Shown here in pieces: positions 40,470 through 46,657 of a stretch of 64,000 bases of DNA (position 1 is its first letter; each line of letters starts with the position of its first letter). Both the position numbers and the translations under genes were made by a program. The notes under the pieces are model-generated. The model worked only from the letters and a program-made list of their open reading frames with translations, was not told the DNA's origin and did not search any database. This DNA is from Erythrobacter sp. (GTDB taxonomy: Bacteria > Pseudomonadota > Alphaproteobacteria > Sphingomonadales > Sphingomonadaceae), in NCBI GenBank assembly GCA_041662105.1, contig JBAZTF010000002.1, positions 133,377-197,376 of the forward strand, written 5' to 3'.

Positions 40470-40769
40470 CCTGTGGAGAACGTGCCGCATAAACCACGGG
40501 AGAAGGCTGGCGACAAGTTCGGGCACGAATTCGCTCCCCATTGCCAGCCTTCCACCCGTCGATTCCCGCACAGGTCGGGCGGGTTTTGGACAGGCTGGGG
40601 ACAGCTGGGAAAACTATGACTCGACTCAGCCGGCGTGCCGAGTCGGAAGCGCCGCTCGCCCTTTGCATTGCGGGAGAAATCGGGCAGGGGCGCGTTATCC
40701 CTGCAATCCACAGGGCCAACAGACTCCATCAAACCTTATATATAAATATTATTGGATTGGACTCGCGCG
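40470..40769. other. Probable chromosomal replication origin (oriC)
   Basis: Lies between duf299 and hemE, as Caulobacter Cori does. Contains an AT-rich run (CCTTATATATAAATATTATT, about 40734-40753), DnaA-box-like TGTGGAGAA (40472-40480) and CAATCCACA (40704-40712), and six GANTC sites; parAB/parS are nearby. Confidence 0.75.
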
Positions 40770-42447: not shown

Positions 42448-43713
<1,266 letters not shown>

Positions 43714-43719
43714 GGCGCG

Positions 43720-44166
43720 CTATCCGGCGGGGATTTGTAACTCGAAATCCCCGTTTGACCGAAGTTCGAAATTACCAAGCATCATGACGTCCCTGCCGAT
43801 TATTGCATCGAATGCAGCGTAGGCCTTTATCTCGATGGCAATTAGTGGTTCGGGTAGAAGGTATGGCAAGGGGCCGCGTTCCTCATCATACAAACCAAGG
43901 AACGTCGTCCAAGATCGGTGAAATCCTTCACCACCAATTCCTGTTGCCCTTTCTTTCCCGCGATAGGAAAGATTGGCAGCTTCGGCCAGGCCCCGCGTGA
44001 CACTTGTGCCATCGGCGCCCGTATCCAGCAGGGCGCGGCAATCGACACCAATGGCGCCGTTGTTTGCGATGCTGGAAGGGTCATGGACAAGCTGGGGTGT
44101 CGCTGGAAGGACACGAATGCGGATAATGGGAGGGGCGTATTTGGCGTTACCCTTGATTTTCAGCAC
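43720..44166 (-). CDS. Retropepsin-like (clan AA) aspartyl protease, cytoplasmic
   Basis: ALLDTGADGTS catalytic motif, TGIGG flap, AIIGRD psi-loop; no signal peptide; lower GC than the flanks. Confidence 0.8.
   Translation of the reverse strand: MLKIKGNAKYAPPIIRIRVLPATPQLVHDPSSIANNGAIGVDCRALLDTGADGTSVTRGLAEAANLSYRGKERATGIGGEGFHRSWTTFLGLYDEERGPLPYLLPEPLIAIEIKAYAAFDAIIGRDVMMLGNFELRSNGDFELQIPAG
43728..43756 (+). terminator. Terminator-like hairpin after rho, inside the 3' end of the antisense protease gene
   Basis: CGGGGATTT-GTAACTCG-AAATCCCCG followed by TTT. Confidence 0.45.
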
Positions 44167-44401
44167 TGCTGAACATTCCCAGTTCCTGCGGTCGTACCGT
44201 CACCCTTTGAATTGAAAATAAGCCATCTGCAAATCTCTCATAGGCGACCTTCAGGGCGTCACTGAGCTTCACATGGATTCCTTGTATTTGCTGATTACGA
44301 AGCAACGCATAGGAACCCTCATGCTCGGGTAGCAGTTCTGGGAGCTTGGGGAGAAACGCAAACAGATTGCGTTGGATTTCTTTATCGAGCGCATCACCCA
44401 T
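44147..44401 (-). CDS. Small DUF5678-like protein
   Basis: ELLPEHEGSYALLRNQQIQGIH..LSDAL.VAYERF..GLFSIQRV resembles the DUF5678 pattern; overlaps the protease start by 20 nt; GGAA RBS-like upstream. Confidence 0.6.
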   Translation of the reverse strand: MGDALDKEIQRNLFAFLPKLPELLPEHEGSYALLRNQQIQGIHVKLSDALKVAYERFADGLFSIQRVTVRPQELGMFSSAENQG

Positions 44402-44537
44402 CGATTGTTCCTTCCAGATTCATGATACCATCGTCGACTCGATAATTCCATTTCAAAGTACGAATCTTTCAGCATTGAATCACGAAACCATGTTCCAATC
44501 GACATTGCGAAAGATTCAGATTCGAAGCGATTTGAGT

Positions 44538-44933
44538 CTACTTCTGCCGCTCCAGCTGGGCGGCCATCTGTTCCCAGATCTTGTTCACCGCCTTCAGCGG
44601 CCGGACCATCACCTTGAAGTCGACGATCAGCCCGGCATCATCGAAACGGATCAGGTCGATACCGTTGACGTGGGTGCCGTCCATCTCGGTGGTGAACTCG
44701 AGCATGGCATTCTCGCCGTCCAGCAGTTCGCGCACATAGGTGAAGCTGTCGTTGCCCAGCGTTTGCCCGGCCGCCGAGAGATAGGCAACCACGACCGGAC
44801 GCCCGCGCTGCGGCGCGTGGACCACGGGTGAGTGGAATACGGCATCGGGATGGATGATCGCCGCCAGCGCTTCGGGCGTGCTGCCGCGCTCGATCACCTC
44901 GTGCCAGCGTTTCAGGCCTTCGCGTGCGGACAT
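44538..44933 (-). CDS. Nuclear transport factor 2 / SnoaL-like protein
   Basis: HPDAVFHSPVVH.P..G, LEFTTE..G..VNGIDLIRFD..G.I.DFKVMVRP. Confidence 0.85.
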   Translation of the reverse strand: MSAREGLKRWHEVIERGSTPEALAAIIHPDAVFHSPVVHAPQRGRPVVVAYLSAAGQTLGNDSFTYVRELLDGENAMLEFTTEMDGTHVNGIDLIRFDDAGLIVDFKVMVRPLKAVNKIWEQMAAQLERQK

Positions 44934-45103
44934 GGCGTTTTCCTTCCGTTTCGATGATCGACGATGGCTGTTATTGACGGCGAGGTCCAGCCTCGTTCAT
45001 GCGGGCGGCCCCCTTGGGGGGCGGGGACGAAAGAGGCTGGCGCTTGCGGCGAAGCTTGGGCAGGCCCAGATAGGGCGCACAGCGCCGCAACGGAGGAAAC
45101 GCC

Positions 45104-45370
45104 ATGAAGGTCCATATCGAAATCGACTGCACGCCCGAAGAGGCGCGGACCTTCATGGGCCTGCCCGATGTCGGCAAGGCCAACGACATCTATGTCGACA
45201 TGATGGCCAAGGCGATGAAGGGCGTATCGAACACCGACCAGCTGCAGGAGTATGCCAAGCAGCTCGCGCCGATGGGGCAGGCGGGATTCAAGCTGTTCCA
45301 GAGCTTCATGGAAGGCGCCAATGCGGCGCGCGGCGGAGCGGGCCGCGGCAAGCCTGCCGACGGGGATTGA
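45104..45370 (+). CDS. DUF6489-like small protein
   Basis: MKVHIEIDCTPEEARTFMGLPDV; GGAGG RBS. Confidence 0.75.
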   Translation: MKVHIEIDCTPEEARTFMGLPDVGKANDIYVDMMAKAMKGVSNTDQLQEYAKQLAPMGQAGFKLFQSFMEGANAARGGAGRGKPADGD

Positions 45371-45385
45371 AGCCAGCACAGCACG

Positions 45386-46657
45386 ATGAGCGATACGATC
45401 TTCGCCCTGTCGAGCGGAGCGCCGCCGGCAGCGATCGCGGTTATCCGGATCAGCGGGCCACGCGCGGGCGAGGCGCTGAGCGCGCTTGCCGGGTCCTGCC
45501 CCGAACCGCGCCACCCCTCGCTCCGCCGCCTGCGTGACAGGGCGGGCGAAGTGCTCGACGCGGCGCTCGTGACCTGGTTTCCCGGTCCGGCGACGGCGAC
45601 GGGTGAGGACCTTGCCGAATTGCATTGCCATGGTGGCAGGGCGGTGGTGACGGCGGTGCTTGGGGCCCTCGCGGCATTGCCCGGTTTGCGTGAGGCCGAA
45701 CCGGGTGAGTTTACCCGCCGCGCCTTCACCAACGGGCGGATCGACCTGACCGAAGCCGAGGGGCTGGCAGATCTGCTTGCAGCAGAGACCGAATGGCAGC
45801 GACGCGGCGCCTTGCTGGCTGCCGGAGGCGCACTGTCGCGGCGGATCGAGCAGTGGCGCGAATCCGTGCTGGGGCTATCGGCGCAAATCGAGGCGGTGAT
45901 CGACTTTGCCGACGAGGGTGACGTGAGTGATCTCCCGCCCGCTTTCGGGGAGGGAATCGCCGATCTGGCAGCGGCCATCGCACGCGTGCTCGAGCGGCCC
46001 CCGGCCGATCGGTTGCGCGAAGGGGTGCGGGTGGTGTTCGCAGGCCCTCCGAATTCCGGTAAATCATCTCTTTTCAATGCGTTACTAGAAGATACAGTGG
46101 CGATTGTCTCGCCCGAGGCCGGCACTACGCGTGACGTGATCGAGCGACCCGTGGCGCTGGGCGGCCTTGCGTTCACCTTTGCCGACACGGCGGGTCTTCG
46201 CGATGAGGGCGCAGGGGTGATCGAGGCGATCGGTATCGATCGTGCGCGCGAACAGCTGGCCCGGGCGGAAATCGTGCTGTGGCTGGGTAATCGGGCGGAT
46301 TGTCCGGACGGAGCGATCCTGGTGCAATCCAGATGCGATGCGGTCGCCGAAGGTGATGAGGGTGCATTACGCGTGTCGGCGGTGACGGGTGAAGGGCTTG
46401 CGCTCCTCACTCAGGAAATCATCCACCGGGGCAAGGCGGCGCTGCCACCGCCGGATCGAATCGCGCTCAACCGGCGGCAGAAAGCACTGGCAGCGCAGGC
46501 GCTGGCGTTTCTCGAGCGGGCGGGTGAGGCGTGCGATCCCCTGCTCGTTGCCGAAGAATTGCGCGCCGCGCGGGTCGCCTTCGATGCGCTTTCGGGGCGC
46601 AATTCGACCGAGGACATGCTCGACGCGCTGTTTGGTCGCTTCTGCATCGGCAAGTGA
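45386..46657 (+). CDS. mnmE: tRNA modification GTPase MnmE
   Basis: [56 protein letters not shown]. Confidence 0.96.

Follow-up and report, generated by a model that had tools for sequence, protein, structure and literature searches.

A conserved overlapping gene pair of a DUF5678-family protein and a retropepsin-like protease beside rho in Erythrobacter: a possible toxin-antitoxin-like module

A 64,000-nucleotide stretch of the Erythrobacter sp. contig JBAZTF010000002.1 (positions 133,377 to 197,376; the whole stretch is called the window here) carries, directly beside rho, two overlapping genes on the minus strand. According to the open reading frame (ORF) list, the upstream gene encodes a small protein of 84 amino acids (aa) (44147..44401, ATG start), and the downstream gene encodes a protein of 148 aa (43720..44166, GTG start), which is a retropepsin-like aspartic protease. 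The two genes form an obligate module that recurs, in the same order and with overlapping frames, in unrelated genomic contexts. We tentatively read this cassette as an autonomous toxin-antitoxin (TA)-like module of an inhibitor and a protease with methylation-sensitive transcription, at a probability of about 0.4. An earlier sequence-only reading of this DNA had proposed a horizontally acquired, translationally coupled pair organized like a TA, inhibitor-protease or anti-phage pair. Its TA-like organization stands, as the small gene comes first, the frames overlap and the contexts are autonomous, and so does its statement that such a pair has no characterized function: none was found in literature searches or in the PADLOC, PHROGs and NCBIfam libraries.

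The gene pair and its two proteins

Pairing was assessed from both sides. The protease-centred scan covered one genome per species in 185,579 species and relied on exact peptide words, which divergent copies can escape. It returned 22 loci with true relatives from about 20 species representatives, and a full-length small ORF lay immediately upstream in all 21 loci having upstream DNA. Three Nitrospirillum matches, which were limited to the DTG region and had no partner, were set aside as other aspartyl proteases. For metagenomes, the pattern scan was built on a 12-sequence subset, the 78-sequence alignment of the small family being too diverse. The metagenome set comprised 66 small-centred loci with at least 400 nt downstream, 56 of which carry an adjacent same-strand ORF matching a protease profile made from Sphingomonadales sequences only. 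Long-contig look-ups also placed the pair in metagenome-assembled genomes (MAGs) of a gammaproteobacterium, Kiloniellaceae and Nitrospinota. The order of small gene before protease, with overlap, is kept in all loci with an intact pair. The co-occurrence expected by the sequence-only reading was thus found, and the pairing is not due to chance.

In three further contexts, the gene caller missed the protease ORF, which was present on inspection, and public gene calls miss or truncate it in L033-L036, L039, L006 and L122. The start codon of the protease gene, sometimes a GTG, is hidden within the 3' end of the partner gene, so that the pair is annotated less often than it occurs.

The overlap in the window is 20 nt long (44147..44166, minus strand), as the sequence-only reading had it, and places the protease start in the last codons of the small gene, so that ...F S S A E N Q G* in the small frame is read as GTG CTG AAA ATC AAG GGT in the protease frame. 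All Erythrobacteraceae-type loci share the 20-nt length; elsewhere in the Sphingomonadales the frames overlap by 29 or 35 nt, and by 26 nt in both the gammaproteobacterial and the Nitrospinota MAG. In every case, the protease start codon falls within the S-[HS]-A codons of the partner tail. Conservation of the overlap across these groups implies translational coupling. Both genes are real and under purifying selection, since orthologue comparisons gave proportions of nonsynonymous differences (pN) of 0.13-0.30 against saturated synonymous differences (pS) of 0.72-0.93.

Sequence and predicted fold assign the 148-aa protein to the clan AA retropepsin-like aspartic proteases, and its active site is intact. 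The full signature reported from the sequence is present: the catalytic D48-T49-G50 (44017-44025, minus strand) within LLDTGA (LLDTGADG at residues 46-53), the flap G76-I-G-G79 (43930-43941, minus strand) and I122-I-G-R-D126 (IIGRD; 43789-43803, minus strand). RALLDTGADG is invariant or nearly so across 24 protease homologues, and most of the 46 homologues collected carry the Pfam domain PF13650 (Asp_protease_2). The window protein itself matches PF13650 above the cut-off (26.3 bits vs 24.3) over residues 40-80 only, and the full-length assignment therefore draws on two other searches. A profile of the 24 homologues found the protease of human T-cell leukemia virus type 1 (HTLV-1) in the PDB (E 1.5e-4, residues 29-132) with the DTG, the GIGG flap and IIGRD aligned. 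The AlphaFold2 (AF2) model has a predicted local distance difference test score (pLDDT) of 91, and Foldseek matched it to the proteases of HTLV-1 and feline immunodeficiency virus (FIV) and to APRc of Rickettsia (E 3e-5 to 3e-4); the top matches, HTLV-1, FIV, APRc and Ddi1, each had a probability of 1.00. Compared with the retroviral enzymes, the model has an additional N-terminal beta hairpin (conserved MPxIxG...P) and two short helices before the core. A classical hydrophobic signal sequence was not evident by eye in either protein, in agreement with the earlier note, and the protease N-terminus is modelled as beta strands with pLDDT above 90. Neither protein has a match in NCBIfam.

The small protein, which is acidic, can for the most part be assigned to the DUF5678 family (PF18929) by the sequences of its relatives and by its modelled fold. 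The DUF5678 likeness suggested by the sequence-only reading holds through these relatives, as the window protein itself has no Pfam match at E<=1. PF18929 is matched by 11 of 23 close homologues, and at least three close homologues and two members of the broader family exceed the gathering cut-off (30-34 bits vs 23.2). Orthologues 55% identical to the window protein reach 30-34 bits over the full 49-position model, which is spanned by residues ~23-70 of the close relatives. A fold search of BFVD further returned viral DUF5678 proteins of pandoraviruses (E 5e-3, template modeling (TM) score ~0.6). The 38 homologues collected are nearly all exactly 84 aa long, and clustering of the family at large leaves 691 representatives at 50% and over 900 clusters at 90%. 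Neither window protein has a match in PHROGs; a distant member of the small family gave one weak match (E 1.3e-4) to a PHROG of unknown function.

The AF2 model of the small protein (pLDDT 84; tail below 50) predicts an N-terminal helix (residues 2-27), a beta-beta-alpha-beta core (residues 31-66) and a disordered tail (residues 67-84) ending in PQELGMFSSAENQG. The tail codons (44150..44203, minus strand) encode the motif [DE]-L-G-[FM]-[FYM]-S, in which G75 is invariant and L74 and F77 are nearly so, and the form [DE]LG[FM][FY]S is kept across the broad family as one of its best-conserved parts. Conservation merely as the ribosome-binding site and start of the protease gene was considered, but synonymous differences between loci at the Leu and Gly codons led to its rejection as the only cause. 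The tail is therefore under selection as a peptide, and the protease start codon probably constrains its S-[HS]-A positions. From its sequence, we regard the tail as a candidate protease-docking peptide, either a substrate or a pseudosubstrate. A folded domain with a conserved disordered tail under peptide-level selection is an antitoxin-like architecture. Tandem DUF5678-like units in a single polypeptide of 159-234 aa occur in P0085, P0086, P0108, P0187 and P0220; such two-domain versions of the partner would suit a dimeric target.

The upstream region and its GANTC array

The spacer upstream of the small gene (44402..44537, minus strand), the putative promoter/operator region of the cassette, has 136 nt, a G+C content (GC) of 39.7% and seven GANTC sites, the recognition sequence of CcrM (plus-strand positions 44417, 44436, 44462, 44477, 44513, 44519 and 44534). 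It is the densest 150-nt stretch for GANTC in the 64 kb, with seven sites vs 0.29 expected. The enrichment extends beyond the window: upstream regions of 25 loci, 22 of them from Sphingomonadales including the window, hold 82 sites vs 8.8 expected, and in 16 of 19 Sphingomonadales loci the upstream region ranks within the top 2% of its locus. Outside the Alphaproteobacteria, three of four contexts have no GANTC cluster upstream of the pair.

Within the spacer, alignment revealed a conserved non-coding block of 54 nt (44434..44487, minus strand; TTTCGTGATTC...GAAAGATTCGTACTTTGAAATGGAATTATCGAGTCGA), whose conservation in the Erythrobacteraceae type far exceeds that of the proteins. A 21-nt core within it, GATTCRWACTTTGAARTGGAA (44446-44466, minus strand), lies ~44 nt ahead of the start codon and occurs nowhere else in the window (0 expected). 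The core is exact in each of the 14 loci retrieved from six of the seven other Erythrobacteraceae-type lineages and in two metagenome loci, but degenerate in L005 (Tsuneonella). An invariant core of this kind suggests an additional DNA-binding factor. No Rfam family was found in 43500-45400 even in permissive mode, so that the block matches no known RNA. In a second Sphingomonadales group, a different array (CGATTCG, GGACTCG, GAGTCAAGA, CGTGACACGACTCG) is conserved despite differing contexts, which indicates that the promoter travels with the cassette.

A putative -35 element (GGAATT, 44444-44449) and a putative -10 element (TATCAT, 44422-44427), both on the minus strand and read by eye from the sequence, flank a 16-nt spacer containing CGAGTCG at about -23, the start site being predicted; a sigma-70 consensus scan reported no promoter. 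In Caulobacter, direct GcrA targets carry GANTC, preferably as YGAKTCK, near -20 or at +2 to +30, with a cluster near -20 (PMC4647560). Clustered GANTC, several upstream sites that fit the GcrA-preferred TGATTCG/YGAKTCK, and one site in the putative promoter spacer at ~-23 are features which the upstream region shares with these GcrA/CcrM promoters. It differs in that a single promoter-proximal site is defining for GcrA targets (PMC4647560), whereas the seven sites in 136 nt here are far denser and lie in another organism. In Sphingomonadales, transcription of the cassette would thus probably be gated by its methylation state, and hence by replication and the cell cycle.

Locus, distribution and base composition

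The pair lies antisense and convergent to rho (42448..43713, plus strand), with 6 nt between the stop codons of rho and the protease gene. The order in the region is hemE, a hemJ-like gene, rho, the pair, a SnoaL-like gene, a DUF6489 gene, mnmE and mnmG, and the hemE-to-mnmG region is a typical alphaproteobacterial origin-proximal cluster. With the cumulative GC-skew minimum of the window near 39.5-39.8 kb, a distance of ~3 kb between the pair and the origin is plausible.

All recovered Erythrobacteraceae-type loci have the pair between convergent rho and the DUF6489-mnmE genes. Their hosts are Pelagerythrobacter aerophilus, Tsuneonella sp. HG222, Porphyrobacter and Erythrobacter MAGs and several other MAGs. 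At least seven other lineages share this locus, with protease identities to the window of 45% to 77%, and the rho-side position was retained through synonymous saturation. Two P. aerophilus contigs, L012 and L013 (NZ_QXFK01000019.1 and NZ_QXFK01000008.1), hold the same 16-kb region with identical match coordinates; a redundant assembly or a large duplication is the likely reason, and the two were counted as one locus. The rho-mnmE gap (43714-45385 in the window; also L001, L005, L006, L012 and L015) has variable cargo, SnoaL in the window and L015 and DLH, Glu_synthase, ADH, TerC or BLUF elsewhere, with the pair constantly beside rho.

Other Sphingomonadales copies are 29-35% identical to the window protease. 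Three of them lie between mnmE and mnmG (L020 7781-8456, L022 6761-7454 and L027 7636-8327), so that the origin-proximal cluster has a second site at which the cassette was acquired or retained. In ten other Sphingomonadales loci, the pair is found amid unrelated housekeeping genes, once adjoining an IS1595 transposase; neighbours away from rho include MsrB, PBP1, acyl-CoA ligase, MetW, PheT, cyclophilin, PFK and ThiG, among others. The gammaproteobacterial MAG (L037 1680-4658, L038) has its pilMNOPQ operon interrupted by a small insert that carries the cassette, a HigBA-like pair of Gp49 (HigB-like) and HTH_3 genes, and two unannotated ORFs.

The AT-rich islet described by the sequence-only reading is evident. 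GC is 0.544 for the protease gene and 0.482 for the small gene (GC at third codon positions, GC3, 0.55 and 0.48) and 0.397 for the upstream spacer, against GC3 values of 0.86 (rho) and 0.85 (SnoaL-like gene) and a GC of 0.665 for the whole window. Local GC at the pair is 0.48-0.57 vs 0.63-0.70 on either side, so that the pair lies about 12-18 GC points below its flanks. This offset is not peculiar to the window, as the cassette is ~10 GC points under its locus in nearly every host (for example, a pair of 41-44% in the 52% host of L025 and one of 56-57% in the 71% host of L028). Together with the saturated synonymous sites, this indicates that low GC is a lasting property of the cassette rather than evidence that it arrived recently. 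As its cause, we infer either repeated exchange or weak selection on the codons of a module that is normally silent.

In the window, no repeats, direct or inverted, were found to bracket the pair, and no mobility genes, integrase or tRNA lie at its borders; an exact-Rho look-up for near-identical strains without the pair gave no record. Identity matrices for eight taxa correlated between protease and partner (Spearman 0.70), not between the pair and hemE (-0.29), and only modestly between the pair and the adjacent rho (0.45), and L005 and L015 share 81% protease identity vs only 70% hemE identity. For these eight taxa, the discordance is suggestive of exchange among relatives at the same locus. 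The distribution is patchy, with the cassette found by motif scan in few of the ~25 genera of the family. Varied contexts, discordance with hemE and rarity are evidence that the cassette moves over longer timescales. Of the horizontal islet proposed from the sequence, movement over such timescales stands and a recent insertion at this locus does not, given the shared rho-side position, the GC trait and the lack of repeats or mobility genes. Of the observations that the sequence-only reading named as speaking against it, conserved synteny across the family was seen, whereas codon usage is atypical and the two genes do co-occur elsewhere.

Some further features of the region were noted. A hairpin at 43727-43752, directly past the rho stop, has a 9-bp stem (CGGGGATTT / AAATCCCCG) and an 8-nt loop; it falls in the last protease codons (GDFELQIP), is followed only by TTTG and did not appear in the terminator scan. 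From its sequence, it could be the terminator of the rho gene, embedded in the convergent protease gene. The sole terminator-like site reported by the consensus scan lies inside the small gene and is at chance level. The second-densest GANTC cluster of the window, five sites at 40611-40760 upstream of hemE, adjoins the GC-skew minimum and a one-mismatch DnaA box at 40472, an arrangement that, as far as sequence can tell, fits a hemE-linked alphaproteobacterial origin. The DnaA-box search gave six one-mismatch sites vs 3.1 expected, which is not significant, and one such box inside the protease gene was treated as chance.

A possible inhibitor/protease mechanism, its rivals and its relatives

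The following mechanism would account for these features. The downstream gene would yield a cytoplasmic retropepsin-type protease that, as all single-domain clan AA enzymes, is active only as a homodimer sharing two DTG aspartates. The upstream gene would supply a small acidic DUF5678 protein with a folded N-terminal domain and the disordered tail [DE]LG[FM][FY]S. This partner may bind the protease dimer, probably as a 2:2 complex, with its tail lying in the substrate cleft as substrate or pseudosubstrate, and thereby keep the protease inactive. With its start codon lying among the tail codons, the protease would be translated only by ribosomes fresh from the partner. Should the partner be lost, degraded or titrated, free protease could cut cellular targets and be toxic. 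In Sphingomonadales, the cassette would use its own promoter rich in CcrM sites, with transcription gated by methylation in a GcrA-type manner.

The pattern of gene decay bears on which component would be harmful. Among the 66 small-centred loci, the ten exceptions to pairing comprise some with protease remnants and others without any protease ORF. Remnants take the form of an internal deletion fusing MPSLSGRF to ILVGRDII, N-terminal stumps and frameshifts. At least 13 of the 66 loci have the protease deleted, truncated or frameshifted with the partner intact, and two more have lost the DTG motif (IATGAS, IDTDAS). The partner was intact in all 21 protease-centred loci (one-sided Fisher p = 0.02 vs the small-centred set), in a comparison that mixes isolate and MAG genomes with metagenome contigs and whose effective n is lowered by near-duplicates. 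Decay biased towards the protease is expected if the protease is the harmful component, and the observed asymmetry is suggestive of this. Full-length homologues with a substituted motif adjoin an intact partner in L075 (1863-2312) and L051 (545-1042) and may be pseudo-proteases or cases of early decay.

Several points weigh against the inhibitor/protease interpretation, the mixed composition of the decay comparison among them. The small protein has no significant match in the PDB by sequence or fold search, and Pfam, PDB-profile and fold searches found in it no helix-turn-helix (HTH), ribbon-helix-helix (RHH), AbrB or Phd-like domain. Profiles of TA and defence systems gave no match beyond a weak one to the generic aspartyl-protease model PDC-M08B (best E 0.0017). 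The promoter elements and GcrA dependence are predicted from sequence, and the Caulobacter rules may not transfer to Sphingomonadales. The retained rho-side position and the elaborate conserved promoter fit a domesticated function equally well.

That last possibility is in our view unlikely. It would make the pair a domesticated host regulator, a cytoplasmic protease with its adaptor or chaperone that is itself regulated by the cell cycle or by stress, is passed on mostly by vertical descent close to the origin, and targets host proteins at a defined stage of the cell cycle. Like the substrate-processing and anti-phage explanations treated below, it is not fully exclusive of an inhibitor/protease module. 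It is favoured by the identical rho-side locus in all Erythrobacteraceae-type genomes despite saturated synonymous divergence, by the three further Sphingomonadales loci at mnmE/mnmG in the same origin-proximal cluster, by pair GC that follows host GC at a constant offset, and by an extremely conserved GANTC-rich promoter of the kind typical of CcrM/GcrA cell-cycle genes (PMC4647560). A settled regulator is, however, hard to reconcile with only ~20 of 185,579 species representatives in the motif scan and few genera of the family, with an identity matrix discordant with hemE and unrelated contexts elsewhere, with frequent inactivation of the protease, and with pairs in non-alphaproteobacteria, three of four of which have no upstream GANTC cluster. 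Far less credible is a recent horizontal insertion private to this genome, in which low GC would be unameliorated foreign DNA. The deficit of 12-18 GC points and GC3 of 0.48-0.55 vs 0.85 would suit it, but the same locus occurs in at least seven other lineages with saturated pS, the same offset recurs in nearly every host from 52% to 70% GC, and the borders lack repeats, integrase or tRNA.

Retroviral proteases, which are retropepsins, cut between pairs of hydrophobic residues. The conserved, disordered tail with its hydrophobic pair [FM][FY] of the kind cut by retropepsins could accordingly mark an enzyme-substrate maturation pair, in which the protease cleaves the tail to release a peptide or activate the DUF5678 domain. 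Strict co-occurrence and coupling would be just as expected of one enzyme dedicated to one substrate. In none of the contexts examined, though, does the cassette adjoin an exporter, a receptor or another modifying gene, and frequent loss of the protease with the supposed substrate kept is hard to explain if processing is needed, so that we consider this explanation as improbable as the domesticated regulator. Abortive infection, with phage removing or titrating the small protein and the freed protease killing or arresting the cell, seems less probable still. It can point to the TA-like architecture, the patchy distribution, the low GC, the one locus adjoining a HigBA-like module, and a weak resemblance, seen in 15 of 24 protease family members (best E 0.0017), to component B of PDC-M08, a PADLOC candidate system. 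This resemblance is limited to the generic DTG region, while the small protein matches no PADLOC model (no consistent match among 78 members), the neighbours are housekeeping genes and not defence islands, PHROGs holds no relatives and a protease scan of viral contigs found none.

Under the favoured interpretation as an inhibitor/protease module, the closest organizational parallel is with type II TA systems. As in these, two small co-directional genes with overlapping frames are present with the protective partner first, in a solitary, patchy, low-GC cassette; the first product is acidic with a folded domain and a disordered C-terminal tail, and it is the downstream gene that decays preferentially. 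The genes are adjacent and co-directional, and the cassette is autonomous and patchy, with the caveat of a stable locus in Erythrobacteraceae. Since the small partner lacks the DNA-binding domain of type II antitoxins (no RHH, HTH, AbrB or Phd-type domain), we call the pair TA-like and do not file it as a TA member. We know of no established TA family with a clan AA aspartic protease as toxin.

Among retropepsins, the retroviral proteases (HTLV-1, FIV) and the RVP domain of Ddi1 are the best sequence and fold matches, with DTG, GIGG flap and GRD aligned; unlike these, the window protease is a stand-alone bacterial gene without gag/pol or ubiquitin-like/ubiquitin-associated (UBL/UBA) domain context. 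APRc of Rickettsia is a membrane-embedded, surface-exposed enzyme that processes autotransporters. APRc (RC1339; PDB 5c9f/5c9b) shares the retropepsin fold (Foldseek E 2.8e-4, TM 0.57-0.63) at 12% identity, whereas the window protease is soluble, free of signal and transmembrane segments as far as predicted, and has a dedicated small partner. RimB and RloA of Pseudomonas are retropepsin-like peptidases linked to the ATP-grasp ligases RimK and RloC and cleave polyglutamate (PMC12239564, PMC11957791). They resemble the window protease as bacterial single-domain DTG enzymes in small operons with a functional partner, RimB also being cytoplasmic; they differ in that RloA is secreted, and in that the partner here is an 84-aa DUF5678 protein encoded by an overlapping gene. 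No ATP-grasp gene adjoins the pair in contexts with called genes or Pfam-scanned neighbours, and the PDB sequence and fold searches with the protease ranked retroviral proteases and APRc at the top and listed no Rim/Rlo entry. In L026, an ATP-grasp-related GSP_synth gene lies ~1.6 kb downstream of the pair on the opposite strand. The partner subfamily found in the window extends PF18929, a family of no known function, by a long helix at the N-terminus and the conserved tail at the C-terminus. The only paper found to mention DUF5678 is unrelated, and literature searches on retropepsin with antitoxin, retropepsin with anti-phage, and bacterial Asp_protease_2 returned nothing on this pair, which is also absent from PADLOC (PADLOC-DB 2.0), PHROGs and NCBIfam.

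Few bacterial retropepsin-like proteases have a known role, namely RimB, RloA and APRc. The cassette described here is an uncharacterized, cleanly delimited unit with a fixed architecture that is widespread over at least two phyla. If its protease is a toxin held by a pseudosubstrate partner, an aspartic-protease effector would join the TA and abortive-infection repertoire, and DUF5678 would gain a first function. The GANTC-packed, nearly invariant promoter offers a testable link from CcrM methylation to an accessory module. It is rather doubtful, if somewhat less so than the regulator or maturation explanations, that the pair founds a new class of protease-based TA-like module, in which a DUF5678 pseudosubstrate tail silences a retropepsin homodimer and, in Alphaproteobacteria, CcrM sites gate its expression. 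If it does, such a module would read the replication or methylation state of the cell (for instance, lost methylation, arrested replication or incoming unmethylated DNA) and convert it into proteolysis.

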